Source: an uncultured Pseudomonadota bacterium (GTDB lineage Bacteria; Pseudomonadota; Gammaproteobacteria; Burkholderiales; Casimicrobiaceae). Taken from it: 64,000 bases of DNA. Where the stretch lies: contig CAVPMH010000025.1 of NCBI GenBank assembly GCA_963706225.1, forward strand, positions 76,667 through 140,666, written 5' to 3'. Position numbers and translations under genes: made by a program. The notes beneath the pieces were generated by a model that was not told where the DNA came from, searched no databases, and was given only the letters and a program-made list of their open reading frames with translations. This document shows, in pieces, positions 4,914 to 62,888 of the stretch (the first letter of the stretch is position 1; the number at the start of each line of letters is the position of its first letter).

Positions 4914-6081
4914 TCACGCCGCCCGCAGCGCATCGACAATCTTCATCCGCGCCGCGCGCGCCGCCGGCAGGAACCCGCCGATGAACCCCATCGCGAGCGC
5001 GAAGATCAGCGACGCGACGACGATGCCGGGGGTCAGCGTGAACGAGAACGCGATCTCGGCGAACGTCTGGAAATTCGTCGTCGAGATCGACGTCGCCTGC
5101 ATGACCGAGGCGGCAAGCAATCCGACGATGCCGCCGACCAGCCCCAGCAGCAGCGCCTCGCCGAGAAACGCCGCGAGGATCGCGCCGCGTGAAAAGCCCA
5201 GCGCGCGCAACGTTCCGATTTCCCCGGTGCGCGACGCGACGCTCGCGTACATCGTGATCGCCGCGCCGATCACCGCGCCGATCGAAAAGATGATCGAGAT
5301 CGACGTGCCGAGGTAGCTGATGAATTTCGACAGCGCCTCCGATTGCTCGGCATAGAAGCGCCTTTCGCGCTTCGCCTCGAGCGTCAGCCGCGGGTCGTTT
5401 TCGATCGCCGCCTTCGACGGCGTCGAACTCGCTCGGATCGTTCAGCCTGAACAGCATCGACGAATAGCCGGTGCGGCGAAACGCCTGCAGCATCTGCTCG
5501 GCATCGCCCCAGATCTCGGAATCGAACGCGGTGTGGCCGGCGTCGAAAACGCCGACGACCGTCCAGTCGCGCGACGCGAAGCGCAGCGTCTCGCCGAGGC
5601 CCGCGCCCTGGAATCCGTCCGCGATCGCGCGCCCCGCGATCACCTCGGCCGTTCCCGGTCGAAACATCCGGCCTTCGACGAGCGCTACTTGCGGCCGCAG
5701 CGTCAGCCCGGCCGGCGTCACGCCGCGGATCACGACGTTGGCCGCCTTGCCCGTCGCGCGCTTCGGCAGGCTGATCAGCACGACCTCCTCCTTGGAGACC
5801 AGCGGCCGACCGTCGGCGGCGAGCGCAATCTGCGGCAGGCTTTCGACGATTCCCGCCTGCAGACGCCCGAAGCCGCTTTGCACTTCGGTCTGCGAGCTGC
5901 GGCGAATCACGACGACGTTGTCGTCCTGGCCGGTGGCGACCAGCGTCTTTTGCAGGCCGGCCGAGAGCATCAGCACGGTCGCGAACACGTACACGACGAG
6001 CGCCATGCCGCCGGCGGTCAGCGTCGTCGTCAGGCGGCGCGCCACCAGGTTGCGGGCGATGTAATTGAGCGGGATCGCCAT
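4914..6081 (-). CDS. MacB/FtsX-family ABC permease (frameshift near 5415)
   Basis: NYIARNLVARRLTTTLT N-terminus; C-terminal RTGEIGTLRALGF and PAARAARMKIVDALR in ORF 4914-5273. Confidence 0.88.
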
Positions 6082-6161
6082 CAGTGGGGATGGGCCGCCC
6101 CGACCGACTGATCAGCCCCCCGGGGGCAGCGAGCGGAGCGAGCGTGGGGGGACGTTCCATG
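6082..6161. repeat. Family-A palindromic repeat copy between the two permease genes
   Basis: GGGCCGCCCC...GCCCCCCGGGGGCAGCG...GCGTGGGGGG, the same core as the 59271-59444 units. Confidence 0.75.
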
Positions 6162-7331
6162 TCAGCCGATCGCCCGCAGGCCGTCGACGATGCGCACTCT
6201 TGCTGCGCGCCATGCGGGAATGGCCGCGGCGACCACGCCGATGATCAACGCGGCCATGAGCTGCATCATGAGCGTTTCCCGCGAGACCTTGAACCCGGCG
6301 AGGATCGAGCCGATCGTGCTCGCGAACACATTGGCCAGCGGAAACGTCGCCGCGATTCCCAGCAGGCCGCCCAGCAGCGCAATGCCCACGGACTCCGCGT
6401 AGATCAGCATCGCGACGAAGCCGTTGCTGAAGCCGAGCGCCTTCAGCGTCGCGTATTCGCCGTAGCGCTCGCGTGCCGTCATCGCCATCGTGTTGGCCAT
6501 CACCGCCATGATGATCACGATGACGACGAAGCTCACCGCCTGGATCGCGAGCAGGATGGCCTCCGACATCGCGACGAAGCCGAGCTGGAATGCCTTTTCC
6601 GTCTCGGTCAGCGTCTCCGCAAGCGAGTTCTTGAACGTCGCGTCGATCGCCTGCGACACGGCCGCGGCGTCGTCGGCGTTGCGCAGCTCCTCGACGAACA
6701 CGCCCGTCTGATCGCCCCGCCCGGGAAATTGCCGCTTGATCGTCTCGTTCAGGTAATCGAAATGGAAGAAGAACGTCGACGTGTCGGTGCCCTCCTGCGC
6801 GCCGTCGTAGATGCCGCGCAGGTTGAACGTCCACGTGCCCGGATAGATCGTGCCGCGCAGCGGAATCTGGTCGCCGACTTTCCAGCCGTACTTGTCCGCC
6901 AGCTTGCGTCCCGCGATCGCGCCCACGCGGTCGGCGAGGAACGCGCGCCGCTCGTCATCCGGCAGCACGAACTCCGGGTACATCGCGAGATAGGTGGGTG
7001 CGCTGATCGCGAATTGCGCGAAGAAATTCCGCTCGTTGATGTACACGCCGCCGAACCAGTTCGCCCACGCCACCGACGTGATGCCGTCGACCTGGCGGAT
7101 CTTCTGCGCGTAGGTCAGCGGCAACGCGAACACGAGCGACACCGAGCTCCGCGTCACGAGCCGCGCCGACGAGCTGGCGTTCGCGCCGGCGTACCACGCA
7201 TCGACGATCGTGCGCAGCATCCCGAACGCCGCGATCGCGACGATGATGCCGACGATGGTCAGCGTCGTGCGCAGCTTGTGGCGAAACGCGTTGCGCAGCA
7301 CGAGCAGCGGAACGAACATCAGTCGGGTCAT
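6162..7331 (-). CDS. MacB/FtsX-family ABC permease
   Basis: LRNAFRHKLRTTLT, RERYGEYATLKALGF, PAWRAARVRIVDGLR. Confidence 0.9.
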   Translation of the reverse strand: MTRLMFVPLLVLRNAFRHKLRTTLTIVGIIVAIAAFGMLRTIVDAWYAGANASSSARLVTRSSVSLVFALPLTYAQKIRQVDGITSVAWANWFGGVYINERNFFAQFAISAPTYLAMYPEFVLPDDERRAFLADRVGAIAGRKLADKYGWKVGDQIPLRGTIYPGTWTFNLRGIYDGAQEGTDTSTFFFHFDYLNETIKRQFPGRGDQTGVFVEELRNADDAAAVSQAIDATFKNSLAETLTETEKAFQLGFVAMSEAILLAIQAVSFVVIVIIMAVMANTMAMTARERYGEYATLKALGFSNGFVAMLIYAESVGIALLGGLLGIAATFPLANVFASTIGSILAGFKVSRETLMMQLMAALIIGVVAAAIPAWRAARVRIVDGLRAIG

Positions 7332-8083
7332 CAGGCGACCAGGACGCCCTTTTCGAGATGCACGAGGCGATGCGCCTTTTCCGCCGCCTTCGGGTCGTGC
7401 GTGACCATGATCACCGTCTTCCCCAGCTCGTCGTTCAGGCGCTCGAGCAGACCGAGAATTTCCTCGGCGGTGGTGCGATCGAGGTCGCCGGTCGGCTCGT
7501 CGGCGACGATCAGCGTGGGATCGCTGATCAGCGCGCGCGCGATCGCGACGCGCTGCTGCTGGCCGCCGGACAATTCGTTGGGCAGATGCGTCGCGCGATC
7601 GGTCAGCCCGACGAGTGCGAGCGCCGTTTCCACGCGCTCGCGCCGTTCGCGCCGTGACAGCGACGTGAGCTGCAGCGGCAGCTCGATGTTGCCGAACGCC
7701 GTCAGCACCGGCATCAGGTTGTAGAACTGGAAAATGAATCCGACGTGCGTCGCGCGCCACAGCGCGAGGTCGGCATCGGAGAGCCGCGCGATATCGACGC
7801 CCGCGACGCGGACCTCCCCGGACGACGGCTTGTCGATGCCCGCGATCATGTTGAGCAGCGTCGACTTTCCGGAGCCCGACGGCCCCATGAGCGCGATGTA
7901 GTCGCCCGCAGCGACATCGAGATCGATGTCGACGAGCACGGGGATGATCTGGTCGCCGCGCACGTAATATTTCGTCAGCGCGCGAACCGACACCAGCGGC
8001 ATCGCGGACGCGCGATCGACAGCGCCCGATTCGCTCGCACTGCCGGCGGCAGGTCCTGTCGCGCGCTGCAGTGCCGCCGTCAT
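7331..8083 (-). CDS. ABC transporter ATP-binding protein (LolD/MacB-type)
   Basis: GPSGSGKST, LSGGQQQRVAIARA, ADEPTGDLD, VTHD. Confidence 0.93.
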   Translation of the reverse strand: MTAALQRATGPAAGSASESGAVDRASAMPLVSVRALTKYYVRGDQIIPVLVDIDLDVAAGDYIALMGPSGSGKSTLLNMIAGIDKPSSGEVRVAGVDIARLSDADLALWRATHVGFIFQFYNLMPVLTAFGNIELPLQLTSLSRRERRERVETALALVGLTDRATHLPNELSGGQQQRVAIARALISDPTLIVADEPTGDLDRTTAEEILGLLERLNDELGKTVIMVTHDPKAAEKAHRLVHLEKGVLVA

Positions 8084-9298
8084 TTCTCGGCGGTCTTCAC
8101 CAGTGCGCCGGTTGCAAGCGATGGCGCGGGCTTCGACACCGCCTTCTCGCCCGCCTTGACGTCACCGGCAATCGCCGTCGCGTCGCCGATCTTCAATCCC
8201 GGCGTCACCGGCACGGCGACGGCGCGCCCATCGCGCATCACGAATACCACGCTGCGTCCATCGCGCTGCACGATCGCATCCGGATTGACGGCAACCACCG
8301 GCTTCTGCTGCTCGGGTGCCACTTCCTGCGAGAGGAAGCTCACCTTCGCGCTCATTTCGGGAAGGATGCGCGGATCGATCGCGTCGAACGCCACCTTCGT
8401 CATCACGGTCGCCTTCGCGCGATCGACGGTGGGGACCATCCGGTTGATGTGACCGCGAAAGCGCGTGTCCGGCAGCGCGTCGAGCACGATCTCGGCCGGC
8501 TGCCCGACGTGCACCTTGGCGAGGCTCGATTCGGAGACGTCGGCTTCGACTTCGAGCGTGCCCATGTCGGCCATCGACACCACCGCGCCCTTCGAGTCCG
8601 TCGCGCTGGAAAACGGCGTCACGAGATCGCCGACGTTCGCGCTCTTCGACAGGATGACGCCGTCGAACGGCGCGCGGATCTCCGTGTAGTCGACGGCGAC
8701 GTCGGCGTTGCGCGCATTGGCGAGCGCCACGTTGAGATTGGCCTGCGCGCTCGCGACGCCCGCTTGCGCACGGTCGAGGCGCGCCTTCGCGGTGTCGAGC
8801 GCCGATTGCGAGATGAAGCCCTTGCCGACGAGCTCCTCGTTGCGCCGGTATTCGACTTGCGCATTCTCGCGCTCGACTTCGCTTTGCCGGACGTTGGCGC
8901 GCGCGGCGCGCACCGACGCCTGCGCGCTTTGCGCCTGCGCGACGACGTCGCGATTGTCGATGCGCGCGATGAGATCGCCCGACTTGACGCGCGAGCCTTC
9001 GGCAACGCCGAGCCATTCGAGCCGGCCCGTCGCCTTCGACGAGATGGCCGCCTTGCGCTGCGCGACGACGTAGCCGGTGGCGTTCAGCACGACGTATTGC
9101 TGCGACGGGTACGTCGTGATGATCGGCGTCGTCGCCACCACCTGCGCGCGCGGCTGCGCGGCGTACCACGCGGCCGCCGCGGCAACGCAGCACCAGGACG
9201 ATGGCGAGCCCTATCCATTTGCGCCGGCGGCGACGCCGGATCGGCGCAAGCTCGCGATCGATGCGCAGGCGGGAGAGGTCGGGAGGTGCTGCGGTCAT
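8080..9298 (-). CDS. MacA-type periplasmic adaptor (membrane fusion protein); frameshift near 9185
   Basis: NATGYVVAQRKAAISSK, IRAPFDGVI, LEVEADVSE; N-terminus MTAAPPDLSRLRIDR lies in another frame. Confidence 0.88.
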
Positions 9299-9356
9299 GA
9301 AATGAATTGCCGGCCATTGCGGCCGGCGAAATTCGATTTTACCGCGATCCCCGCCG

Positions 9357-9420
9357 CCCTCACCCCAACCTTCTCCCGCGCGCGGGCGAGGGAGCCGAGC
9401 GCAAGCGGGGCGGGTGAGGG
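9357..9420. repeat. Family-B REP-like palindrome
   Basis: CCCTCACCC...TCTCCCGCGCGCGGGCGAGGGAG...GGGTGAGGG; related copies at 35551 and 52357. Confidence 0.7.
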
Positions 9421-9462
9421 GACTTGCGGCGAACTCAGTTGCGCCCGGCGCGCGGCAACCCT

Positions 9463-10314
9463 TCAACCGGCGACGCGGGTTTGGCAGGTGCGGGCGCAGG
9501 TGCGGACGCCGACGCGACCCGAGCGATTGAGAAGCAGGCAAACGACTATCCAGTACGCGGCCAGCACGAGCAGCGGCAGAAGTGCCGGACGCGAACGGTA
9601 ACCGGTGAACGAGGCGATCAGGCCGCCGAGCCGGCCCGAATCGTCGAGCAGACGCGAGGTATTCCACACCGGATCGACGAGCGCCGGCACGACATCGAGC
9701 GCGATCAGCTTTTCGATGCCGGAAACGAGCAGCGCGCCGGCGAGCAGCAGCAACAGGATCTCGCTCACGCGGAAGAACACGCGCCAGCTCAGGATGCGCG
9801 ACCCCTGCTGCAGCAACCAGAAAGTCGCGAAGGCCGCTGCGATGCCGAGAACCAGCACGACCGGCAGATGCGCGATGCCGCCTTTTTCCGCGCCGAGCCC
9901 GTAGAGAAAGACAACCGTCTCGGCCGTCTCGCGGCCGACCGCGAGCGCCACGACGATCAGCAGCCCCCACCAGTTGGCCGCGCGCGCGTTGCGCGCCATG
10001 TTCGCTTCGAGATCCTTCTTGAACGTGCGGCCGTGCCGGCGCATCCAGAACACCATCTGCACGATCAGCGCCGATGCCACCAGCATGATGACGAGCTGGA
10101 AATAATCGAGGCCGTTGCCGGAAAGCGACGAGGCGATGCCCAGCATGACGAGGGCAAGCACGAGCGCCAATCCGGCGCCCGCTGCGACACCGCCCCAGAG
10201 GAATCGCATCCCGGTTGCCGCATCGGGCCGGTGCTTCAGCCACGCATACAGAATGCCGACGACCAGCATGGCCTCGGCCGATTCGCGCCAGACGATGAAC
10301 AGTGCGTTACCCAT
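9463..10314 (-). CDS. FTR1/EfeU-family iron permease
   Basis: Two RExxE motifs (WRESAEA, GRETAET) and several TM segments. Confidence 0.9.
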   Translation of the reverse strand: MGNALFIVWRESAEAMLVVGILYAWLKHRPDAATGMRFLWGGVAAGAGLALVLALVMLGIASSLSGNGLDYFQLVIMLVASALIVQMVFWMRRHGRTFKKDLEANMARNARAANWWGLLIVVALAVGRETAETVVFLYGLGAEKGGIAHLPVVLVLGIAAAFATFWLLQQGSRILSWRVFFRVSEILLLLLAGALLVSGIEKLIALDVVPALVDPVWNTSRLLDDSGRLGGLIASFTGYRSRPALLPLLVLAAYWIVVCLLLNRSGRVGVRTCARTCQTRVAG

Positions 10315-10382
10315 GATGTCGCGCTCGACCCCGACTATTTCGCGACTCCCCCGGCCAGCATAGCAAAAGAACGCCGCCACGT

Positions 10383-10403
10383 AAATAATAATCATTATTA
10401 TTT
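10383..10403. promoter_or_regulatory. Fur box upstream of FTR1
   Basis: Perfect 10-1-10 inverted repeat AAATAATAAT-C-ATTATTATTT, AT-rich in a GC-rich background, about 70 bp upstream of an iron permease. Confidence 0.85.
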
Positions 10404-10479
10404 GCGACGACCGCCGAAACCACTGATCCGTTTCGATACAACGGGTTGCAGCCGCCGCGCCCGGATGGACGCCTGAAAC

Positions 10480-11402
10480 CTAGCCGCCGTCGAGCGGCGT
10501 CGGCGCCGCCGGCAGCGGCTCGACTCGCCGTCCCGCGAGCAGCGCCTGGGCCGCGATCAGGGCGAGACCGGTCCCGATCATCGCGATGCCGGCCCATTCG
10601 TTCGCGGCAAGGCGCTCGCCGAAAATCGCCATCGACGACAACAGCGCAATGACGGGAACGGCGAACATGTTGAGCGACGCGGTGCCCGCGGGCAGCCAGC
10701 GCAGGATTTCCATCCACAGCAGGAAGCCGCCGGCGGTCGACACGACGCCGACGATGATCAGAAGGAACGCCTGCGCGATGCTCCATTGCGTCGCCGGCAC
10801 GCCGAACAACCACGGCAGCAGCGAGAGCGGCAGGACGCCCAGCAGCATTTGCCAGCAGACGAAACTCAGGAGATCGAAGCCGCGCACGCGTTGAAAGTAC
10901 TTCATCGCGACCGTGCCCGCGGCCCAGCCGAATCCCGACAGCACCGCCCACAACTTCGGGCGCGAGGTCGCCCTCCCACGCCCACGGCTCGACGACGAGC
11001 AGCAGGCCGGCCAGCGCGAACGCGATCGCCGGGGCCTGCAAGCCGCGCACCCGCTCGTGCAGGATCGGCCACGCGATCAGCAACGTCCAGAACGGCATCG
11101 TGAAGACGAGCACCGACGTGCGCCCGGCGCCGCCGCCTGCGATCGCCATCGTCGTTGCGCCGAAATTGATCGTCGTCTGGAAGAGCGCCGTGACGATCAC
11201 CGCGCGCCAGCTATGCGGCCATATCCGCCCGCCGCGCGCGATCAGCACCGCGAACAGCACGAGCGTCGCGAGCCAGGTGCGCTGCATGTTGAATGCGAGC
11301 GGATGCGCGTGCAGAAAGCGCGGCCTTGATCACGACCCAGTTCAAGCCCCACACGAGCGTCAGCAGCGCGAGCGCGGCGTAGGCGCCCTTGCGCGACTGC
11401 AC
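10480..11402 (-). CDS. DMT/EamA-family transporter (frameshifts near 11320 and 10960)
   Basis: LTLVWGLNWVVIK, AGRTSVLVFTMPFW, LHER, IFGERL spread over three frames. Confidence 0.85.
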
Positions 11403-11418
11403 GCTGAAAGCGCGAGCC

Positions 11419-12318
11419 TCAAGCGGCGCCGAGGAACGATTCGACGAGTGCCGCCACCTGCGCGGGCTGATCGTGGTGCAGCATGTGGCCGGCATCCGGT
11501 ATCGTCGCAAGCCGCGCACCGGGGACGTGCGCGATGCGCCGGCGCACTTCGTCGAGGCCGTCGGCGCCGGCCTCGCCTTCGGGATGATCGGCAAGCCAGC
11601 GCGGAATTTCGGAATCTTCCGCGGCGATCCACAGCACCGGCGCGGTGACGTTGCGCCAGATCGCGAAGGTTTCGTCCATCCGGTAGACGTGCGGAAACGG
11701 CAGCTTGTGGCGCGGGTCCGACACGAGCTCCGCGCGGCCGTCGGGAAACACCGCCGCCCAGCGCTCGGCGAGAAACTCGCGCCTTGTCGCGCGGCAGGCG
11801 CGGATTCTTCTTCTGCAGCCGATCGGCGACGGCGGCGAGATTCGCATACGGACGAAACGGCGGCGGATTCGCCAGTGCATCGAGCCACGCGGCGATTTTG
11901 CGCGGCGCCTTGTCCGGGGCCTCGGCGGGAATGCCGAAGCCTTCGAGCGACACGACGCGATGCACGCGCCGCGGCCGCACGCCGGCGTAATCCATCGCGA
12001 TGTTGCCGCCAAGGCTGTGGCCGACGAGGCGCACGGGGTTATCGGGCACGAAGCGCTCGAGCAGCGCCTCGAGATCGGCGATGTAATCGTAGAACCAGTA
12101 GCCCTGCGCCTGCCAGCCCGAGCGGCCGAAGCCGCGCAGATCGGGCGCGATCGCATACCAATCGCCCGCGAGCGCATCGACCAGGAATTGAAACGACGCG
12201 CCGACGTCCATCCAGCCGTGCAGCAGGACAATCGGCGTCGCCTGCGGCTCGCCCCACGTTTGCACGTGGTGGCGTTCGCCGCGCACGTCGACGAAATGCG
12301 ACGTCGCCGGCTTGATCG
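11419..12318 (-). CDS. Alpha/beta hydrolase (start uncertain; frameshift near 11780)
   Basis: LHGWMD, APDLRGFGRS, GHSLGG nucleophile elbow, AGHMLHHDQP. Confidence 0.88.
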   Translation of the reverse strand, partial: RSSRRRRISSTCAANATTCKRGASRRRRRLSCCTAGWTSARRFNSWSMRSRAIGMRSRPICAASAARAGRRRATGSTITSPISRRCSSASCPITPCASSATALAATSRWITPACGRGACIASCRSKASAFPPRPRTRRRAKSPRGSMHWRIRRRFVRMRISPPSPIGCRRRIRACRATRREFLAERWAAVFPDGRAELVSDPRHKLPFPHVYRMDETFAIWRNVTAPVLWIAAEDSEIPRWLADHPEGEAGADGLDEVRRRIAHVPGARLATIPDAGHMLHHDQPAQVAALVESFLGAA

Positions 12319-12642: not shown

Positions 12643-12714
12643 TGCGCTCACGAATGGCCGCGCGGATCGGTCGTGTTGGCGGAGTAGAATTCTAGCATTC
12701 CCGCAATGCGCCTC

Positions 12715-16181: not shown

Positions 16182-16204
16182 TTCGCGGATCGCGCGAAGG
16201 CCTC

Positions 16205-17419: not shown

Positions 17420-17500
17420 AGCGCGACATGCGGCCAATACCGCACTTCGGATGCCGACGCGCACGGCGACCGGCCGTCGTCATCGACGCCCGGCACACCG

Positions 17501-31301: not shown

Positions 31302-32099
31302 CTAGTGCAGGTCTTTCCAGTACTCGCGCTTCAGTGCGTACGCGAAGGTGAACAGCACGCCGAGGAACAGCAGCACGACGATGCCGAGATGGATCCGCTT
31401 GTTGCGGACCGGCTCGGCCATGTAGTCCATGTAATTGACGAGGTCCGTCACGAACGTCTCGTATTCGGTGCGCGTCATCGTCCCCGGGACATCGGGCGAC
31501 ACGCGCAGCATCGCGTACTTGTGGTCCTTGAGCGGTTCCACCATCGACAGACCCTTCACCGCGATCGCGGCGGCCGTCGCCTTTTCGTGATCCTCGTATT
31601 CGGTCGAGACGAGCTTGTTCTCGCCGGAGAGTTGCCACAGCACGTTCGGCATGCCGACGTTGGGGAACACGAGATTGTTCCAGCCGGTGGCGGACTTCTC
31701 GTCGCGATAGAAGCCGAGCAGGTAGTTGTACAGCCAGTCGCGGCCGCGAATCCGCGCCTCGACGGTAAGGTCCGGGGGCGGATTGCCGAACCACGCCTTG
31801 CCGTTCGCCGGCGTCAGCGCGACCGTCATCGTCTCGCCGATCTTGTCGGTCGCGAACATCAGGTTGTCGGTGATCTGTGCCTCGGTGAGCCCGAGGTCTG
31901 TCAGGCGGTTGTAGCGCATGTACTGCGCCGAGTGGCACGTGAGGCAATAATTGACGAAGTTGCGGGCGCCGCGCTGCAGCGACTCGTCGTCGAGCCGGTT
32001 GACCGGCGCGGGCGCCAGGCGAAGCCCCTCCTCCTGCGCGGACGCGATACCCGCGAACATCGCCAGCAGGACAAGCAACAGGCAGGCAACCCGTCTCAT
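31302..32099 (-). CDS. petC: Cytochrome c1
   Basis: LQRGARNFVNYCLTCH, PPDLT, C-terminal TM then KREYWKDLH. Confidence 0.95.
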   Translation of the reverse strand: MRRVACLLLVLLAMFAGIASAQEEGLRLAPAPVNRLDDESLQRGARNFVNYCLTCHSAQYMRYNRLTDLGLTEAQITDNLMFATDKIGETMTVALTPANGKAWFGNPPPDLTVEARIRGRDWLYNYLLGFYRDEKSATGWNNLVFPNVGMPNVLWQLSGENKLVSTEYEDHEKATAAAIAVKGLSMVEPLKDHKYAMLRVSPDVPGTMTRTEYETFVTDLVNYMDYMAEPVRNKRIHLGIVVLLFLGVLFTFAYALKREYWKDLH

Positions 32100-32215
32100 C
32101 GCCTCGGCCTCATTGTTCCACCTTGGTATGCGCGCAACGCGCGTCGGCCTCGCGCGACTCGCCCCGCGCCGCGCCCTTCGGGCCTCGGCTCGCTTCGCTC
32201 GCCCGCGGGGCTCAT
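32096..32215 (-). other. 39-aa bridge mini-ORF (repeat-like insert) between petB and petC
   Basis: MSPAGERSEPRPEGRG...MRPRR; ATGA overlap with both the petB stop and the petC start. Confidence 0.55.
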
Positions 32216-34284: not shown

Positions 34285-34369
34285 ATGATTCCCCCGCGCT
34301 TGCGGCTGTCGCCGCTGCGCTGCCCCCGGGGGCGGCGTTCGCGCCTCGAGGCGGCTCTGCGGCGCTCAT
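34285..34369. repeat. Family-A repeat copy (reverse orientation) upstream of the protease gene
   Basis: Reverse complement ATGAGCGCCGCAGAGCCGCCTCGAGGCGCGAACGCCGCCCCCGGGGGCAGCG...GCAAGCGCGGGGG aligns by eye to the lptB 87-bp unit. Confidence 0.72.
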
Positions 34370-35534: not shown

Positions 35535-35550
35535 CGCACTTTCGCCCCGG

Positions 35551-35604
35551 CTCTCTCCCGCTCGCGGGAGAGAGTGCCTGAGCAGCGCGAGGGCGGGTGA
35601 GGGA
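35551..35604. repeat. Family-B REP-like palindrome between convergent degS and tatC
   Basis: CTCTCTCCCGCTCGCGGGAGAGAG hairpin followed by GGGCGGGTGAGGGA. Confidence 0.7.
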
Positions 35605-35616
35605 GCCGCGAGTTCC

Positions 35617-36381: not shown

Positions 36382-36447
36382 CGAATGCTCGCAGGCGTCA
36401 GGCGCCGGCGCGCGAGACCGGCGGCGCGCACACGTGCGGCGCGGGAA

Positions 36448-48387: not shown

Positions 48388-48397
48388 TCTTTTCCCT

Positions 48398-51793: not shown

Positions 51794-52338
51794 TTGCCAC
51801 CTCCTGCGGACACTGCAGCACCGGTACCGGAACCCGCACTTGCCGCGGCAGGCCCGTTGCTGGCGCCTGGCGCTGCGCCGTTGCCTGCAGCAGCCTTGTC
51901 GAACATGAACTGGCCGATCAGCTTCTCGAGCACGATCGCCGATTGCGTTTTCCCGATGCGCGCGCCGTCGGCGAGCATCTGCGTGTCGCCGCCGGAGTCG
52001 AGCCCGATGTACACCTCGCCGAGCAGCCCGGACGTGAGGATCGATGCGATCGTGTCCTTGGTGAACTGATAGCCGCGATCGATTTTCATCGACACGACCG
52101 CCTGGTACGTTTGCGGATCGAGCTTGATGCGCTCGACGCGGCCGACGACGACCCCCGCCGCCTTCACCGGCGCGCGCAGCTTCAGGCCGCCGATGTTGTC
52201 GAATGCGGCGTCCAGATGATAGCCGGGCGCGCTGCTGACCGACGTCAGGTTGCCGACCTTGAGCGCCAGGAACAGGATCGCGGCGACGCCGATCGTCACG
52301 AAGATGCCGACCCACAGGTCCAGCGTCGATCGATTCAT
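51790..52338 (-). CDS. mlaD: MCE-domain protein MlaD
   Basis: FDNIGGLK, TSGLLGE, VLEKLIGQF. Confidence 0.94.
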   Translation of the reverse strand: MNRSTLDLWVGIFVTIGVAAILFLALKVGNLTSVSSAPGYHLDAAFDNIGGLKLRAPVKAAGVVVGRVERIKLDPQTYQAVVSMKIDRGYQFTKDTIASILTSGLLGEVYIGLDSGGDTQMLADGARIGKTQSAIVLEKLIGQFMFDKAAAGNGAAPGASNGPAAASAGSGTGAAVSAGGGK

Positions 52339-52424
52339 GCGCGCCCCTCGCCGCGGTCCTCTTCCCAACCGGGGAGAGGTGCCGAGCGAATGCGAGGCGA
52401 GTGAGCGGATTGTCCGGGTCTCAT
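52335..52424 (-). other. 29-aa bridge mini-ORF containing a Family-B repeat, between mlaE and mlaD
   Basis: MRPGQSAHSPRIRSAPLPGWEEDRGEGRA*; ATGA overlap at both ends; contains the CCTCTCCCC/GGGAAGAGG hairpin. Confidence 0.6.
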
Positions 52425-53230: not shown

Positions 53231-53271
53231 GCGCTGTGCTCCCGACGCCTGCGGCTGCCGCCGCTCGGCGC

Positions 53272-54105: not shown

Positions 54106-54214
54106 TTGGGGGACAGCGGGAGGGCGGAAGAAGGATTGTATCCGGTGGGCGAAACGCCCCGCAACGACGTCAATCGGAGACAGTGGCACAAGGGCTCGGT
54201 CGAGGGCCCGCGGC

Positions 54215-56179
54215 TTACTCGCCCTTCAGCAACCGCTGCTCGGCGCGCGCCAGCTCCGCTGGCCGGCCGAGCAGCACGACAGCGTCGCCCGGCGCGAAAC
54301 GCCAATCGGCGCCAGGCATCACCGATCGCGCACCGGGTCGGCGCACGCCGGTCACTTCGACGAGCGCGCCGACGTTCAATTCGTCGAGCGACCGGCCGAT
54401 CGCATGCGCACGTTCGCCGAGCAGCACCGTATGCAGTCGCGGCTGCATGTTGTCGGCGGCGTCCGCGACATCGCTCGCGCCGTGGAAGAAACCGCGGAAC
54501 AGTCCGTATCGTTGCTCGCGAACCGTCCGGATGCGCTTCAGCACGCGGTTGAGCGGCACACCCAGCACGAGCAGCGAATGCGACGCGAGCATCAGGCTGC
54601 CTTCGAGCACCTCGGGAACGACCTCCGTGGCGCCGGCCGCGAGCAGCCGGTCGATCTCGCCATCGTCGCGCGTGCGCACGATCACGGGCACTTCGGGGCG
54701 CAGATGCTGCACGTGGTGAAGGATCCGGATCGCGACGGCGGTATCCGCGAACGTGATCACGACGGCGCGCGCCTTCGCGAGCCCGGCGGAAACGAGCGTC
54801 TCGCGCCGGCTCGCATCGCCGTAGATGACGCTGGTGCCGTCGGCGGCCTCGCGCACGCGCTGCGGATCGGCATCGAGCGCGAGATAGGCAATGTCCTCGC
54901 GCTCGAGCAGGCGCGTCAGGTTCTGTCCGCTCCGGCCGAAGCCGCACACGATGACGTGGCCCTGGCGCGCCATCGTCCGGGCCGCCACTTGCGTGAGCTC
55001 GGCTGCGCGCGCGAGCCAGTCGTTGGCCGTCAGCTTCCTCACCCACCGCTCCGCGTGCTGGATGAGCAGCGGCGCAAGCAGCATCGACAGGATCATCGCC
55101 GCGAGCACCGCCTGCGCGAATCGTGGCGACAGCAGCCCGGTCTGCGTCGCGAGCGCGAGCATGACGAGCGCGAATTCGCCCGCCTGCGCGAGATAAAAGC
55201 CGGTCCGCAGCGCGGTGCCGGTCGGCGCGCCGAACGCGCGGGCGAGGACGACGATCAGCACGAGCTTCGCCGCCACGGGAACGATCAGCAACAGCAGCAC
55301 GTAGCCCGCGAGCACGCGATCGACGTGAAGGTCGAGCATCATGCCGATCGTGATGAAGAAAAGTCCGAGCAACACGTCGCGAAACGGCTTGATGTCCTCT
55401 TCGACCTGGTAGCGGAATTCCGTTTCGGAGATGAGCATGCCGGCGAGAAACGCGCCGAGTGCCAGCGACAGGCCGAAATAGCCGGTGATCGCCGCCATCC
55501 CGAGCGTCACGAGCAGCACGTTCAGCACGAAGAGCTCCGACGAGCGCTGGCGCGCGACCAGCCGAAACCACGCGCGCATCGGCCGTTGCCCGAGAAACAG
55601 GATCACCGCCAGCGCGATCGCGGCCTTGAAGAGCGCGCCCGCGAGCACCCACCCGGTGGCAAGACCCGGCAGCCCGAGCGACGGAATCAGGATCAGGAAC
55701 GCGACGACCGCCAGATCCTGGAAGAGCAGGACGCCCATCACGTCGCGTCCATGCGGCGTGCCGAGCTCCGAGCGCTCGGCGAGCATCTTCGACACGATCG
55801 CCGTCGAGCTCATCGCGAGCGCGCCGCCCAGCACGATGCCGGCGCGCCACCCGTAGCCCAGCAACTGCATGGCGAGCGTGCCGGCGCCCGTCGTGATGGC
55901 GACCTGCGCTGCGCCGAGTCCGAAGACCGCACGGCGCATCGTGCGCAATTGCGGCAGGCTGAACTCGAGTCCGATCGAGAACATCAGGAACACGATGCCG
56001 AACTCGGCGAGCTCGCGCGTCGCATCGTCGTCGGGGACAATGCCGAGCGCGTGCGGGCCAAGCGCGATGCCGACGATCAGGTAGCCGAGGATCGGCGGCA
56101 ATCGGATGCTGCGGCACAACGCGACGACGACGACGGAGGCCGCGAGCAGCATCAGGATCAGCAGCAGCGTGTTCGGCAT
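54215..56179 (-). CDS. CPA2-family cation:proton antiporter with TrkA-N/TrkA-C domains
   Basis: LAMSSTAIV, LLFQDL, GFGRSGQ, YGDA. Confidence 0.92.
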   Translation of the reverse strand: MPNTLLLILMLLAASVVVVALCRSIRLPPILGYLIVGIALGPHALGIVPDDDATRELAEFGIVFLMFSIGLEFSLPQLRTMRRAVFGLGAAQVAITTGAGTLAMQLLGYGWRAGIVLGGALAMSSTAIVSKMLAERSELGTPHGRDVMGVLLFQDLAVVAFLILIPSLGLPGLATGWVLAGALFKAAIALAVILFLGQRPMRAWFRLVARQRSSELFVLNVLLVTLGMAAITGYFGLSLALGAFLAGMLISETEFRYQVEEDIKPFRDVLLGLFFITIGMMLDLHVDRVLAGYVLLLLIVPVAAKLVLIVVLARAFGAPTGTALRTGFYLAQAGEFALVMLALATQTGLLSPRFAQAVLAAMILSMLLAPLLIQHAERWVRKLTANDWLARAAELTQVAARTMARQGHVIVCGFGRSGQNLTRLLEREDIAYLALDADPQRVREAADGTSVIYGDASRRETLVSAGLAKARAVVITFADTAVAIRILHHVQHLRPEVPVIVRTRDDGEIDRLLAAGATEVVPEVLEGSLMLASHSLLVLGVPLNRVLKRIRTVREQRYGLFRGFFHGASDVADAADNMQPRLHTVLLGERAHAIGRSLDELNVGALVEVTGVRRPGARSVMPGADWRFAPGDAVVLLGRPAELARAEQRLLKGE

Positions 56180-56251
56180 GGGCCGGGCGAAGTTAGCACG
56201 CCGCCGATGGTTGCAGCGGCACCGCGAAGGGGCGGCGGTATACTTTGCGCG

Positions 56252-57284
56252 ATGATCGCCCATGCGGATGCGCAAAGCGATGCGCGCGACGCCCCACCCG
56301 GTACCGTCGACGCGCAACGCGCACTGGCGCTCGCCCGCGACGTTCTCGACACCGAGGCGCGCGCGATCTCGTCGCTCGGCGCGCGGCTTTCCGCACCGTT
56401 TGTCGCTGCCGTCGAGCTGATGCTCCGGTGCCGCGGCCGCGTCGTGGTCTCCGGCATCGGCAAATCCGGACACATCGCGCGGAAGCTCGCGGCGACGCTG
56501 GCGTCGACCGGCACACCGGCTTTCTTCGTGCATCCCGCCGAAGCGGGACACGGCGACCTCGGCATGATCACCGCGGACGACGTCGTCGTCATGCTCTCGA
56601 ACTCCGGCGAAACCGACGAGCTGATGATGCTGACGCCGCATCTGAAGCGCCAGGGCGCCAGGCTGATCGCCTTGACCGGCAACGAGCAGAGCTCGCTCGC
56701 GCAGTCGGCGCACGTCCATCTCGATGCGGCCGTCGATGCCGAAGCGTGTCCGCTCGGGCTCGCGCCGACCGCCAGCACGACGGCCGCACTGGCGCTCGGC
56801 GACGCGCTTGCGCTGGCCGCTGCTCGATGCGCGCGGGTTTTCGGTCGAGGACTTCGCGCGCTCGCATCCTGGCGGCTCGCTCGGCCGCCGGCTGCTGACG
56901 CGCGTCGCGCGACGTCATGCGCACGGGGCAGCGCCGTGCCGCGCGTCGCGGATACGGCGACGCTCGCCGAAGCGATCGTCGAGATGAGCCGCCAAGGGCA
57001 TGGGCATGACGTGCGTCGTCGACGAACGACGACACAGTCGCGGGCATCTTCACCGACGGCGATCTTCGCCGTGCCTGAGCCGGTCCGGCGATCCGAATCG
57101 GCGCGCGTCGCCGACCTGATGACGAAGCGCGCCGCGCACGATCGACGCCGAACGCCTCGCCGCCGATTGCATCGTGCTGATGGAGACGCCACCGAAGATC
57201 ACGTCGCTGCTCGTCGTCGATGCCGCCGGCACGCTGGTCGGCGCCGTGCAGATGCACGATCTCTTCCGCGCGCGCGTCGTCTAG
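56252..57284 (+). CDS. kdsD: Arabinose-5-phosphate isomerase, KpsF/GutQ family (several frameshifts in the CBS region)
   Basis: GIGKSGHI, HPAEAGHGDLG, LAPTAST, HPGGSLG, HDLFRARVV. Confidence 0.92.
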
Positions 57285-57298
57285 CGTCATGGGCGCCG

Positions 57299-57848
57299 AT
57301 GACGACTGACCTGACCGCCCGCGCGCGCCGCGTGCGCCTGCTGTCGTGCGACGTCGACGGCGTGCTGACCGACGGACGCATCTACGTCGACGACCACGGC
57401 CACGAGTTCAAGGCGTTCTGTGCGCTCGACGGCGTCGCGATGCATCTGCTGGCAGACGCCGGCATCGTCGTCGCGTGGATCACCGGGAGCAGCGCGCCCG
57501 CGGTGGCGCATCGCGCGCAGCAACTGCGCATTCCGCATCTCGTGCAGGACGCGCACGACAAGCGCGCGCCGTGGGAGCGGCTGCGCATCGATCTGGGGTT
57601 CGCGCCCGAGCAATGCGCGCACATCGGCGACGACCTGCCGGACATCGCCGTGCTGGCCGCATGCGGCCTCGGCGTGACGGTGCCGCACGCACCTGCCGCG
57701 GTTCGCGCGCATGCGCATTACGTCACGTCGCGCGACGGCGGCGGCGGCGCGGTGCGCGAGCTGGCCGACATCATTCTCGCCGCGCAAGGATACGACGACG
57801 CGCGCGACGCGCCGCGCGCGGGCGCCCGCGCTCGCGCCGGCGCGCTGA
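57299..57848 (+). CDS. kdsC: KDO 8-phosphate phosphatase (3' end approximate)
   Basis: DVDGVLTDG, IGDDLPD, GGGAVRE. Confidence 0.9.
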
Positions 57849-57862
57849 AGCCCGATCCCGCG

Positions 57863-58488
57863 ATGGATCGCACGCGCGCCTTCTTCGATCGCCTCGTCGC
57901 GTGGTCGCCGGTTCTGCTGCTCGGCGCGCTCGCTGCGCTCACGTACTGGCTCGACGCGCAGGTGCAGCCGCCGCCGGCCCGGCGCGACGGATCGTCGCGC
58001 CACGACCCCGATCTGTTCCTGCAGGATTTCAAGGCGATCACGTTCGACGCGCAGGGCAAGCCGCGCGAATCGTTATCCGCGGTGCGCGCCGATCACTTTC
58101 CCGACGACGACAGCGCCGAGCTCGCGGACCCGAAACTGTCGCTGACCGAGACGGGTCATCCGACGATGACGATCAGCGCCGATCGCGGAACGATTGCCGG
58201 CGACCGCGACCACGGCGATTTTGCGGGGCACGTGCGCGTCGAGCGCGCCGCGGAAACGCAGCCGGCGAAGCCGGGCGAGACACCGACCGGCCCCGTTACG
58301 CTCACGACCGAGCCTGCTGCACGTCTTCACCAAGGAGCAGCGCGCGCAGACCGATCAGCCGGTGACGATCGAGGAACCGCGTGGAATAATCCGCGGCCGA
58401 GGCCTCGAGTTCGACAACAAGGCGAAGACGCGTGCGGATCAAGTCGCACGTCAGCGGCACGCTCCAACCTCAACACGAACCCAGATGA
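57863..58488 (+). CDS. lptC: LPS export protein LptC (frameshifted)
   Basis: [21 protein letters not shown]; context between kdsC and lptA. Confidence 0.87.
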
Positions 58489-59187
58489 CGCAACCCGGTA
58501 TTGCCGCACGGCGAGTGCGTGGCGCTCGCCGCATGCGCGATCGGCCTTCTCGGCCCCGCGGTCGCCGGCGCCGAGAAGGCCGATCGCGACAAGCCGATCA
58601 ACTTCTCGGCCGAGCAGCCGGCGGAAGTGGACTTCGACAAGCGCGTCGGCACGCTGCGCGGCAACGTCGTGATCACGCAAGGAACGTTGACGATTCACGC
58701 GGACAGGATCGACTTCAAGCAGAATCCGGACGACTCGCTGTCCGCGACCGCGGTCGGCAAACCGGTGAGCTTCCGTCAGAAGAAGGACGACTCCGACGAG
58801 TATTTCGAAGGCTACGCGCAGCGCGCCGTGTACGACGGCCAGACGCAGACGCTCGAGCTGTTCGACAACGCGCTGCTCAAGCAGGGCAAGGACGAGATCC
58901 GCAGCAATTACATTTCCTACAACAGCGCGACCGATATGTTCCGATCGGAGGGCCGGCCCAACGCCCCCGGCGCCGAAGGTCCGGGCGCACGCGTGCAAGG
59001 CGTATTCGAGCCGCGTACCGAAACGCCGCTCGGAACGAAAGGCGCGCCGAAATCCGACGGGAAGGAAACGGCCCCGGCCGGCAAGGCCGCAGCGACAACG
59101 AAGGATGGCAAGCCGGCAACGCCCGCGCCGGCCGCAAAGGCGGCCCCGCCGCTCAAGCTCACGCCCGACCCGACGCTGCAGAAGTGA
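58485..59187 (+). CDS. lptA: LPS transport protein LptA (5' frameshift)
   Basis: [25 protein letters not shown]. Confidence 0.9.
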
Positions 59188-59444
59188 GTGCCGCCGCGCC
59201 GATCCAGCATGCGAACGCCTCCCGCTGGGAGGCCGCGCAGCGACCCGCCTCGCAACCGTGGGGGGACCGCATGAGCGGCGACGGGCCGCCCCAAGACGCG
59301 AATTCCGCCCCCTGGGGGGCAGCGCCGCGACGCACGTCGCAAGCGTGGGGGGAGCACATGAGCGGCGACGGGCCGCCCCAAGACGCGAATTCCGCCCCCT
59401 GGGGGGCAGCGCCGCGACACACGTCGCAAGCGTGGGGGGAACAC
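59184..59444 (+). repeat. Three tandem 87-bp Family-A units in frame with lptB
   Basis: Units 59184-59270 (diverged), 59271-59357 and 59358-59444 (last two differ at 2 nt). Confidence 0.9.
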
Positions 59445-60168
59445 ACCAGCAAGCTTACGGCAGCGCACTTGCGCAAGCGCTACAAGGCGCGCACCGTCGT
59501 CCACGACGTTTCGCTCGAAGTCGCGAGCGGCGAGGTGGTGGGCCTGCTCGGCCCCAACGGCGCCGGCAAGACGACGTGCTTCTACATGATCGTCGGGCTC
59601 GTCGCCGCCGACGGCGGCAACATCTCGCTCGACGGCGAGAACCTGTCGCGGCTGCCGATCCATCGGCGCGCGCGGCGCGGGCTTTCCTACCTGCCGCAGG
59701 AAGCGTCGATCTTCCGCAAGCTGACGGTGTCGCAGAACGTGCGCGCGATCCTCGAGCTGCAGGACCTCGACGCCGACGCGCTCGTCGAACCGGCTCGACG
59801 CGCTGCTCGAGGACCTGTCGATCTCGCATCTGGCCGACGCGCCGGCGGTATCGCTGTCCGGCGGCGAGCGGCGGCGCGTGGAGATCGCGCGCGCGCTGGC
59901 GACGCGGCCGCGCTTCATCCTGCTCGACGAGCCGTTCGCAGGCGTCGATCCGATCGCCGTGCTCGACATCCAGAAGATCATCGGCTTCCTGAAGGAGCGC
60001 GGCATCGGCGTGCTGATCACCGACCACAACGTGCGCGAGACGCTCGGCATCTGCGACCGCGCGTACATCATCAACGAAGGCCGGGTGCTCGCGTCCGGCG
60101 CGCCGGGCGAGATTGTTTATAATGAGGACGTCCGGAAAGTTTATCTCGGGGAGCACTTCCGGCTCTGA
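59358..60168 (+). CDS. lptB: LPS export ATPase LptB (start lies inside a repeat: 59184, 59271 or 59358; frameshift near 59790)
   Basis: [43 protein letters not shown]. Confidence 0.93.
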
Positions 60169-60243
60169 CTCGCCACGATGCGAGCGACCGGCTGTCCCGT
60201 CGATGCCGGCGTAGCTGCACCCTTCTAGAAAGCGCGGTCGTCG

Positions 60244-61716
60244 GTGAAGCAGACGCTCCAACTCAAGCTCTCGCAGCACCTCACGCTGACGCCGCAGTTG
60301 CAGCAGTCGATCCGGCTGCTGCAGCTGTCGACGATCGAGCTCAATGCCGAAGTCGAGCGCATCCTGCAGGAAAATCCGCTGCTCGAGCGCGCCGAAGTCG
60401 AGGAGGAGCGCGTAGCTGCCGAAGTGCCGCTGTCCGGTCCGGGACGCGTCACCGACGGCGCCGAGCCCGCAACGCGCGAGACCACGTCGAGCGACACGGC
60501 GTCCGAGATGCGCGCGACGCGCGACGATGCGCCGGAAGTGGCCGACTTCGCCGATTACGGCGGCGGCGGCGACAGCGACTGGGGCGGTGGCAATTCCGGA
60601 GACGACGACGATTTTCTGCCGCAGCAGATCGCGACCAGCACGCTGCGCGACCACCTGAATGGCCAGCTCGCGCTGCTCAACCTGCCGCAGCGCGACCGGC
60701 ACATCGTCATGGCGCTGATCGACGCGCTCGACGACGACGGCTACCTGCCAACACCGCTCGAGGAAATCGCCGAGCTGTTTCCGGCGGAACTCGAGATCGA
60801 GCCCGAGGAGCTGTCGATCGCCCTCAAGTTCGTCCAGAGCTTCGAGCCGTCGGGTGTCGGCGCGCGCGATTGCGCCGAGTGCCTTGCGCTGCAACTGAAG
60901 ACGCGGGCGCCCGACACGCCGTTTCTCGCCGACGCGCTGAAGGTCGTCGATGGCAACCTTCCGCTGCTCGCGAACCGCGACTTCACCAAGCTGAAGCGGC
61001 TGCTGCATACCGACGACGCCGGCGTGCGCGGCGTGCGCGACCTGATCCGCAGCCTCAATCCCCGGCCGGGCGGCGCGTTCGCGAAGGCCGAGGCGAACTA
61101 CGTGATCCCGGACGTGGTCGTACGTAAGATCAGGAACCAATGGGTCGCGGCGCTGAACGAGGCGGCGATGCCGAAGCTGCGGCTGAACCGCATCTACGCC
61201 GATATCCTCACGCGCAATCGCGAGAGCTCCAACCAGCAACTCGCGGCGCAGCTTCAGGAAGCGAAGTGGCTGATCCGCAACGTGCAGCAGCGCTTCGACA
61301 CGATCCTGCGCGTCGCCAAGGCCATCGTCGAGCGCCAGCGGCGCTTCTTCGAGCACGGCGAAGTCGCGATGCGGCCGATGGTGCTGCGCGAGATCGCCGA
61401 CATGCTGTCGTTGCACGAATCGACGATATCCCGCGTCACCACGCAGAAATACATGCTGACGCCGCGCGGCACGTTCGAGTTGAAGTACTTCTTCGGCAGC
61501 CATGTCGCGACCGACACGGGCGGCGCCGCTTCGGCGACGGCGATTCGCGCGCTGATCAAGCAGCTGATCGCCGCCGAAGATACGAAAACACCGCTTACCG
61601 ACAGCAAGATCGCCGACATGCTCGGCGAGCAGGGGATCCTGGTCGCCCGGCGCACGATCGCGAAGTACCGCGAGGCGCTGCAGATTCCGCCGGTCAACAT
61701 GCGCAAGGCGCTTTGA
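60244..61716 (+). CDS. rpoN: RNA polymerase sigma-54
   Basis: TPQLQQSIRLLQL, HESTISR, RpoN box ARRTIAKYRE. Confidence 0.97.
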   Translation: MKQTLQLKLSQHLTLTPQLQQSIRLLQLSTIELNAEVERILQENPLLERAEVEEERVAAEVPLSGPGRVTDGAEPATRETTSSDTASEMRATRDDAPEVADFADYGGGGDSDWGGGNSGDDDDFLPQQIATSTLRDHLNGQLALLNLPQRDRHIVMALIDALDDDGYLPTPLEEIAELFPAELEIEPEELSIALKFVQSFEPSGVGARDCAECLALQLKTRAPDTPFLADALKVVDGNLPLLANRDFTKLKRLLHTDDAGVRGVRDLIRSLNPRPGGAFAKAEANYVIPDVVVRKIRNQWVAALNEAAMPKLRLNRIYADILTRNRESSNQQLAAQLQEAKWLIRNVQQRFDTILRVAKAIVERQRRFFEHGEVAMRPMVLREIADMLSLHESTISRVTTQKYMLTPRGTFELKYFFGSHVATDTGGAASATAIRALIKQLIAAEDTKTPLTDSKIADMLGEQGILVARRTIAKYREALQIPPVNMRKAL

Positions 61717-61912
61717 GGGATTCCTCTTCGGCGACTTGCCGCCGGTTGCCGACCGTCGCGCTCGGCCTTTGCGCGCCACGCGCCACCCCGCCATTCGCAT
61801 CGCCCGTCGCGCATCCAACGCAAGCGCGCCGTCAACCGGCCGCGCGAATCGGCGCGCCTGCGCGGCTACAGCGCGGCACGCGACCTTCATTTCAGCATGG
61901 AAGGAGAGCCTG

Positions 61913-62260
61913 ATGAATCTGCACCTCACTGGCCATCATCTCGACATCACCCCGGCGATCCGCGATTACGTGATCGCGAAGCTCGAGCGGGTGAATCGCC
62001 ATTTCGACCATGTGATCGACGTCAGCGTGGTGCTCTCGGTGGACAAGCTGCGACAGAAAGTGGAGGCGACCATCCACGTGCGCGGCAAGGACCTGCACGC
62101 GGAAAGCATCGACGCCGACATGTATGCCGCGATCGACGCGCTCGCCGACAAACTCGACCGGCAGGTCCTCAAATACAAGGAGCAGCTCAAGGATCACCGC
62201 ACCGACACGGCCGCCATCGACCGCTCGGCGGTCGGCTCGGGCGCCGAGGAGTCGAGCTAG
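61913..62260 (+). CDS. hpf: Ribosome hibernation promoting factor
   Basis: TGHHLDITPAIR, DMYAAID. Confidence 0.94.
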   Translation: MNLHLTGHHLDITPAIRDYVIAKLERVNRHFDHVIDVSVVLSVDKLRQKVEATIHVRGKDLHAESIDADMYAAIDALADKLDRQVLKYKEQLKDHRTDTAAIDRSAVGSGAEESS

Positions 62261-62271
62261 CCAGGCTTCAC

Positions 62272-62339
62272 GGGGTCGGAGTCGTTGAAAAGCGAGCGAG
62301 CGGCCGCCGTTCAAGCATAATTTCAACGACTCTGACCCC
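62272..62339. repeat. Family-C inverted repeat (REPIN-like doublet)
   Basis: GGGGTCGGAGTCGTTGAAA-N30-TTTCAACGACTCTGACCCC, 19-bp arms with one mismatch. Confidence 0.8.
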
Positions 62340-62397
62340 TTGAAACATATAATCGGCCGGTTTGCCTTTGCGTCCAGAGCGACGCGCACCGGCCTTC

Positions 62398-62859
62398 ATG
62401 AACCCGATCGCGGCCCTGCTGCCCGCCTCCAACATCGTCGTCGACCTCGACGCCGCATCGAAGACGCAATTCTTCACGGCGGTGGGCGGCGTGTTCGAGC
62501 GGAGCGCCGGGCTTTCGCGTGCGCACGTCGCGGCCAGCCTCGCCGCTCGTGAAAAGCTGGGCTCGACGGGACTCGGCCAGGGCATTGCCATCCCGCACGG
62601 GCGCATCCATGGCCTGCCCGAAGCAGTGGGCGCGTTCGTCCGGTTGCGTGCACCGATCGCATTCGACGCGCCCGATGGCAAGCCGGTCGATCAACTGTTC
62701 GTGCTGCTCGTGCCCGAGCAGGCGACCGATCAGCATCTGCAGCTTCTGTCAGAGCTCGCCCAGATGTTCTCCGAGCGCGCGTTTCGCGACCGCCTGAGCA
62801 CCGCGAAGGACGCGGCGGCACTCGCCGACGCCTTCCGCGACTGGCGCCCGGGAACATGA
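62398..62859 (+). CDS. ptsN: PTS EIIA-Ntr
   Basis: REKLGSTGLGQGIAIPHGR, FDAPDG. Confidence 0.94.
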   Translation: MNPIAALLPASNIVVDLDAASKTQFFTAVGGVFERSAGLSRAHVAASLAAREKLGSTGLGQGIAIPHGRIHGLPEAVGAFVRLRAPIAFDAPDGKPVDQLFVLLVPEQATDQHLQLLSELAQMFSERAFRDRLSTAKDAAALADAFRDWRPGT

Positions 62860-62888
62860 GCGCCGCCGCAAGCGTGGGGGTCGCATGA
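62856..62888 (+). other. 10-aa bridge mini-ORF (Family-A remnant) between ptsN and hprK
   Basis: ATGAGCGCCGCCGCAAGCGTGGGGGTCGCATGA, ATGA overlap at both ends. Confidence 0.6.

Follow-up and report, generated by a model that had tools for sequence, protein, structure and literature searches.

Hairpin repeats with bridge reading frames at operon stop/start overlaps in a Casimicrobiaceae genus: a probable translational relay

We analysed a 64,000-nucleotide (nt) stretch of the genome of a Casimicrobiaceae bacterium, referred to here as the window (G000:C25:76667-140666, G000 being the genome from which it comes), with a focus on the short inserts that occupy several of its operon junctions. In our judgement, the window probably contains members of several short (~60-120 nt), GC-rich, hairpin-forming repeat families that have settled, in this genus, on NTGA overlaps between the stop codon of one gene and the start codon of the next. 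At such sites the insert itself reads as a bridge open reading frame (ORF) that begins at the upstream stop and ends at the downstream start, an arrangement that would relay ribosomes from one gene to the other. A first-pass annotation of the window had proposed at least two repeat families; at least three, designated A, B and C-like, are involved, and they are unrelated and of the same design.

Bridge reading frames and empty sites

The bridges at petB/petC, mlaE/mlaD and ptsN/hprK are present as the first-pass annotation had described them, and each of the three spacers is a single ORF with ATGA at either end. A fourth junction, lptA/lptB, carries tandem repeats.

32096..32215, minus strand: petB-petC bridge ORF of 39 codons and a stop, contained in a family-B insert of 116 nt
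52335..52424, minus strand: mlaE-mlaD bridge ORF of 29 codons and a stop, contained in a family-C-like hairpin insert of 86 nt
62856..62888, plus strand: ptsN-hprK bridge ORF of 10 codons and a stop, derived from family A by deletion
59185..59445, plus strand: three tandem 87-nt family-A units between lptA and lptB, the lptA stop at 59185-59187 forming a GTGA overlap

On the minus strand, the petB TGA (32214-32212) overlaps the ATG at 32215, and the bridge TGA (32098-32096) overlaps the petC ATG at 32099. The petB gene ends in ...GGCGATGAG, which stands on both sides of the insert (32219-32211 and 32103-32095), its second occurrence containing the bridge TGA and the petC ATG. Similarly, GCGCATGA flanks the mlaE/mlaD insert on both sides, and in the congener G001 the single unit present at lptA/lptB is flanked by TGAGC; the recurrence of junction sequence around the inserts, first remarked on in the window alone, is thus seen at three junctions. 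The junction being duplicated, a stop is therefore retained at the left of the insert and a start at the right. The duplications measure 9 nt, 8 nt and 5 nt; they may be target-site duplications, as in a MITE, but could equally be the partial next unit of a tandem repeat.

At lptA/lptB, the unit ATGs at 59272 and 59359 share the lptB frame, in line with the earlier proposal that the repeats are in frame with the gene. No start codon other than these unit ATGs precedes the conserved LptB N-terminus. The units may amount to a coding repeat comparable to Rickettsia palindromic elements (RPEs), depending on where lptB actually starts.

We interpret petB/petC, mlaE/mlaD and lptA/lptB as sites of insertion because relatives carry plain ATGA or GTGA empty sites there. 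The petB/petC junction is empty, with a plain ...GGAAATGAGC... overlap, in at least 20 congeners; mlaE/mlaD is empty in at least 12 (mlaE...GGCGTATGAAYCGC...mlaD, ATGA); and lptA/lptB is empty in at least eight (AAGTGAGCAAGCTC, a GTGA overlap without an insert). Which sites are occupied differs from one congener to another, as does the number of units, with 0, 1 or 3 units at lptA/lptB depending on the genome. The proposal that the elements insert at stop/start overlaps accordingly stands for these three junctions, but not for ptsN/hprK, where a family-A 5' TGAGCGCCGCC is fused to a 3' GCAAGCGTGGGGGTC: the same mini-form occurs at this junction in G036, and the other relatives have ordinary spacers with no ATGA overlap.

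Each insert changes the signals around the displaced start in a similar way. The original Shine-Dalgarno (SD) sequence is located inside the 3' end of the upstream gene and so now lies ahead of the bridge ORF, while the start that the insert has displaced is preceded by a new G-rich motif, which is GGGGG for family A, GAGG for family B and GAGGGG for the mlaE/mlaD insert. This SD-like run is found 4-9 nt before the new start. The elements thus bring a stop (the 5' TGA), an open frame, an SD-like G-run and, often, the first base of the start; the first-pass annotation had suggested that they bring their own start, SD and stop.

Structure of the repeat families and conservation of frame

Family A was collected by iterated nhmmer searches from the 87-nt unit, which gave ~58 copies in G000, distributed over 53 loci, and between 11 and 38 matches per genome in four relatives; the family is found throughout the genus. 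Its consensus is TGAGCGCCGCCGGGCCGCCCCAAGGCGCGAA..GCCCCC-loop-GGGGGCAGCGCAGCGGCGA.AGCCGCAAGCGTGGGGG. The element starts with TGAGCG, in which TGA is the stop of the upstream gene and TG, together with the preceding base, is a start codon. It remains open in the bridge frame across three covarying hairpins, followed by a terminal G-run in the position of an SD, and 4-9 nt after this run an N+TGA serves as both bridge stop and downstream start. Compensatory changes occur in the hairpins, one pair being C-G in 29 copies, G-C in 4, T-A in 3 and T-G in 5. On the sense strand, the stems contain 80 G·U against 12 A·C pairs, and the constraint is therefore strand-specific. The predicted fold leaves the 3' G-run unpaired. 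By inspection of a 44-copy consensus, the element, unlike a MITE, does not end in inverted repeats: its termini, TGAGCGCC… and …GCGTGGGGG, are non-complementary, and all stems are internal. For 17 copies in G000, the upstream gene terminates at the TGA of the element itself, and the copies in this genome are mostly co-oriented with the neighbouring genes.

Because the quality of the G000 assembly is doubtful, the geometry of family A was assessed at every locus found in four congeners that are 94-100% complete (G013, G046, G008 and G041). A locus was classified as a relay if the upstream stop is overlapped by a start whose ORF runs through the element or elements to a stop that shares bases with an ATG, TTG or GTG located 4-9 nt beyond the G-run. 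Among 29 sense loci between co-oriented genes, 22 are relays, 3 are in frame with the downstream gene and 4 are broken, three of the broken loci having non-TGA stops (binomial p = 3.4e-6 for 22/29 relays against 1/3). The 29 loci are at different sites, and merging by orthology on the basis of flank similarity joined none of them. Antisense copies, which have the same length and composition and serve as an internal control, include 2 relays and 8 broken loci (Fisher p = 0.003).

Tandem arrays point in the same direction. Their periods are 86, 87, 89, 96, 98 and 99 nt. Of the 21 steps in 10 arrays, 14 equal 0 mod 3 and the other 7 equal 2 mod 3; 1 mod 3 does not occur. In G013, an array of seven units reads as a single ORF of 204 codons whose end falls on a TTG start. 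Considered singly, 32 of the 48 full units are ORFs of 29-35 codons from NTGA to NTGA. Copies differ in the frame in which the second half of the encoded peptide is read (…AAAKPQAWG… vs …AAAIAASVG…), a hairpin-loop difference of 1 nt being compensated in the tail, and an excess of differences at third codon positions is not consistent among copies (366/345/317 and 274/289/385 differences per codon position). Thus, the frame is conserved and the peptide is not. That the geometry is recurrent, and apparently subject to a constraint on frame across the genus, is well supported by these comparisons.

The mlaE/mlaD junction allowed a survey of one site in 107 genomes, with frames anchored by tblastn; a previous procedure, in which the mlaE stop was taken from any long open frame, produced spurious chains in GC-rich DNA and was replaced. 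The two genes are usually tightly spaced (gap of -4 to +8 nt), and gaps of at least 9 nt were found in 27 of the genomes. In 12 of these 27, a start overlaps the upstream stop (11 NTGA, 1 TGATG), and the bridge ORFs comprise 12-47 codons with largely unrelated sequences; these 12 fills include 10 single-bridge relays, one in-frame extension, one chain of two ORFs and no broken case. Counted conservatively, these amount to seven events, five of them in relay phase (p ~0.045, our estimate) and all seven unbroken. Among the fills at mlaE/mlaD that lack a start overlapping the upstream stop, none forms a chain, and the relay is therefore one solution rather than a necessity.

Families B and C-like are sparse in G000 itself: nhmmer searches of this genome with the petB/petC, mlaE/mlaD and tatB/tatC spacers yielded only self or weak matches, and the families became apparent in relatives. 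Family B, the petB/petC insert, is single-copy in G000, whereas G008 and G038 carry repeated copies; the tandem array of G008, with three units of 119 nt and one short unit, reads as a chain of four ATGA..ATGA ORFs. The C-like mlaE/mlaD insert is also single-copy, with similar hairpins at ~9340-9420 and 35545-35610 of the window and in a fill in another genome.

These two family-C-type hairpins in the window read CCCTCACCCGCC…CTCTCCC-loop-GGGAGAG, and the one at 35545-35610, between convergent genes, resembles a terminator or an element of the repetitive extragenic palindromic (REP) type. The tatB-tatC spacer (36382-36447, minus strand, 66 nt) is GC-rich, unique in the genome and without a bridge ORF. 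Elsewhere in G000, three loci (C15:105732-105848, C21:81196-81312 and C12:73829-74083) are composites of ATGAGCGC, an inverted REP pair of the type associated with RAYT transposases and the 3' half of family A, and keep ATGA at both ends in relay phase. Another relay-type family, of 69 nt and 4-5 copies, occurs at C16:54709-54777 and C3:15781-15849.

Two further copies and an irregularity within lptB complete the inventory of the window:

34292..34368, minus strand: family-A copy in intergenic DNA between the divergent genes degS and petA, outside any operon junction
6082..6161, plus strand: degenerate family-A-like copy between two MacB/FtsX-type permease genes, antisense to both
59457..60168, plus strand: lptB body, frameshifted by one inserted nucleotide near 59783; the gene, normally essential, reads in two frames, and the insertion shows in an alignment with four relatives

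Both copies had been described as one base short of the relay state. This is correct for the permease junction (6164-6081, minus strand), where the ORF of the antisense copy misses TGATG by one base, but the degS copy lies between divergent genes. Pfam agrees with the gene names in the window, namely petA/B/C, the degS-like protease, tatABC, the his genes, mlaF/E/D, MlaA, MlaC, lptA, lptB, rpoN, hpf, ptsN and hprK, as well as with the two MacB/FtsX-type permeases. A search of the whole window against Rfam at the gathering score returned a tRNA only, and no family matches the repeats.

A proposed relay of ribosomes and the alternatives to it

The explanation that we consider most likely to be right is that a ribosome ending translation of the upstream gene would re-initiate on the bridge ORF through the original SD in the 3' end of that gene, melt the hairpins of the element as it translates the bridge, stop on the downstream start and re-initiate there. 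Copies would then survive because their insertion has little polar effect, and those with a length of 0 mod 3 would extend the downstream protein instead, as at lptB. The same strategy has been proposed for MIRUs, mycobacterial interspersed repetitive units that are discussed below. Contigs from one metatranscriptome library span the joints between the lptA end and the first unit and between the third unit and lptB, as DNA contigs do; this is a weak hint only, given that DNA carry-over is possible. Each of the public sequencing runs used contains at most 43% of the sampled words, and only the contig-covered parts of the stretch were interpreted.

Several observations, most of them from G000 itself, weigh against this explanation. 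Gene frames and starts were taken from our own codon-usage caller rather than from curated annotation. Among co-oriented gene pairs of G000 with a gap of 12-150 nt, dual NTGA overlaps are present in 56 of 243 pairs in relay phase against 49 of 383 in the other two phases (odds ratio 2.0, Fisher p = 0.001), an excess that speaks for the relay; it is weaker, however, against phase 0 alone (56/243 vs 30/191), and in-frame cases may have been counted as -4 overlaps by the caller. In total, G000 contains 80 complete dual-overlap bridges at gaps of 12-400 nt; the dual-ATGA bridges of at least 45 nt number 55, of which 36 are unique in sequence and 13 derive from multicopy elements. Family A in G000 is random in phase, (d-u) mod 3 being 9/12/12; its NTGA loci include 7 relays, 7 in-frame and 9 broken cases, and only 4 of 33 NTGA-type units have the 3' NTGA end. 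The expectation that phase would exceed chance is accordingly borne out in the four congeners and at mlaE/mlaD over the 107 genomes, but not for family A in the genome in which the bridges were noticed. Moreover, new copies inherit the length of their source, so that copy counts overstate the number of independent selection events, and the two loop/tail variants may be single origins. Finally, other clades express mlaD from ordinary spacers without a bridge.

We do not regard the randomness in G000 as refuting the relay: part of it is due to a derived subfamily and part, possibly, to assembly indels, two causes that are not separable. The subfamily, specific to G000, ends in ...GGGGGGATCATACAAGC; its 5' TGA is often the upstream stop, and no start codon follows. 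With regard to the assembly (3.37 Mb, 67% GC), CheckM completeness is 66% despite only 25 contigs. The 1-nt insertion in lptB is missing in four relatives, and most of the short-read contigs from four public runs lack it too. This insertion (window 59770-59790) and the low completeness probably reflect indel errors in the assembly.

Among the alternatives, the one that fares best, although we consider it unlikely, is that the geometry is a by-product: the elements would integrate at NTGA or TGAGC, duplicate the target and inherit the length of a master copy, with independent initiation at the G-rich SD of the element and an inert bridge. The duplicated junctions at three sites would follow directly from such a mode of integration. 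Dual NTGA is also associated in phase-0 pairs (30/191 observed vs 24 expected), most units have the NTGA…NTGA frame irrespective of context, stop codons are scarce at 67% GC, and the relay-free spacers of other clades work. A by-product does not, however, readily account for bridges of 29-35 codons per unit and 12-47 codons at mlaE/mlaD, always multiples of three, for the 1-nt loop indel that is offset in the tail or for the avoidance of 1 mod 3 by tandem periods. Neither does it explain why unrelated fills at a single junction, mlaE/mlaD, all retain the chain, nor why antisense copies of the same length and composition are without the relay.

It appears improbable that the elements act mainly as RNA structures in the operon mRNA, that is, as REP-like or BIME-like 3' stabilisers, processing sites or attenuators that set the ratio of products, with an ORF that is incidental or just lets ribosomes pass. 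Such a role would fit the three hairpins with their compensatory changes and sense-strand G·U bias, the strong co-orientation with genes, the G000 subfamily that adjoins stop codons with no start after them, and the family-C hairpins at convergent gene ends. It leaves the conserved frame, the 3' N+TGA and the lack of 1 mod 3 tandem periods without an account, and the repeats match no Rfam family. Furthermore, a function as RNA is compatible with a relay and not exclusive of it. The notion that the bridges encode functional small proteins made in step with the operons (e.g. MSAAGPSQGANCAPSGGSAAAxAASVGV) draws on the recurrence of the N-terminal half of the peptide in most copies and on arrays that reach 204 codons of repeats, and is very improbable in view of the differing frames of the second half, the flat or inconsistent differences per codon position, a conservation that follows the stems, the lack of a common peptide among mlaE/mlaD fills and the low-complexity composition.

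Beyond the relay itself, we tentatively entertain a broader scenario, in which several unrelated mobile families in one soil lineage converged on a relay cassette consisting of stop, start, open frame, SD and stop/start. Such a cassette would let the elements live at 4-nt overlaps in operons that are essential, among them lpt, mla and cytochrome bc1, and the host could use the variation in unit number (0-7 units; 29-204 codons) as a heritable dial on coupling and subunit ratios.

Distribution, relation to known systems and implications

The nearest named relatives of G000 are Casimicrobiaceae metagenome-assembled genomes (Burkholderiales) from soil and rhizosphere. In a sample of 150 genomes of the order, family-A matches with E ≤ 1e-8 were confined to the genus and, in weaker form, to two other genera; a further two genera, of the same family, gave no match in this sample. 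The family-A-like copies from outside the genus (G098 and G147, which belong to other families of the order; L241-L245) are without the 5' TGA and the 3' start, which suggests that the relay ends may be a derived adaptation. Two of these copies are inside long open frames and are possibly in-frame gene insertions.

A RAYT/TnpA or DUF559 gene had been envisaged as the mobilising factor. The only RAYT-like gene (PF01797, Y1 transposase, 229 aa) is located at L013 1432-2121, within an element region (L013 1342-2232) that corresponds to G000:C13 ~85294-86184. It is flanked by inverted GGYGTCGGAGGTGTAAT, a motif with 88 copies in the genome, and belongs with this REP/REPIN family of its own, unrelated to family A; a search for a DUF559 gene found none. 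Although family A resembles REP, BIME and REPIN elements in being an abundant, short, GC-rich palindromic repeat of transcribed intergenic DNA, it is not the repeat beside the RAYT gene, its arrays are direct tandem repeats and not inverted pairs, and its copies favour the sense strand, with a reading frame that is fixed.

The relay layout, which the first-pass annotation did not know as a described system, was reported for MIRUs in 1997. According to the review PMC12548453, which cites Supply et al. 1997, start codons are the insertion sites of MIRUs, and an internal ORF is coupled at -4 nt, an arrangement presumed to keep the effect on expression minimal. As portrayed there, MIRUs are short, often tandem units between genes of the same operon, in the orientation of the genes, with an internal ORF joined at both ends, by overlaps at -4 nt, to the flanking stop and start, and a unit number that varies between strains. 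The repeats described here show the features of this functional class: the units are co-oriented, and the internal ORF overlaps the upstream stop and the downstream start (22/29 loci, 32/48 units); the unit number is 0, 1 or 3 at lptA/lptB and up to 7 in G013. They differ in their hosts, which are Betaproteobacteria as opposed to Actinobacteria, and we do not count them as members of the mycobacterial sequence family itself. They further differ in comprising at least three unrelated families, in the three covarying hairpins and SD-like G-run of family A, and in having family-A relatives outside the genus without the stop and start features. In the literature available to us, we found no MIRU-like repeats or intercistronic relay elements from hosts other than mycobacteria, nor several unrelated families of this design.

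Two other systems share parts of the design. Like RPEs, the repeats give codons to a host protein (lptB would gain 29-87 residues, and 3 of the 29 loci in relatives are in frame), but RPEs are found inside genes, whereas most copies here sit on a stop/start overlap as a separate mini-ORF. As in short upstream ORFs and bicistronic designs, an ORF ending on the target start would deliver ribosomes and remove inhibitory structure; here, the leader ORF is coupled to the upstream gene and is borne by a multicopy repeat.

Stop/start overlaps join about a quarter of co-oriented bacterial gene pairs. They look like the worst place for an insertion, and the elements described here show a low-cost route by which selfish DNA may enter this niche, an idea that has so far rested on one actinobacterial example from 1997. 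For annotation, the consequence is that the starts of essential genes such as lptB may be mis-set, mini-ORFs missed, and tandem units collapsed or shifted in frame in noisy assemblies. With bridges of 10-204 codons, three families, antisense controls and empty-site alleles, the lineage offers natural test material for termination-reinitiation.

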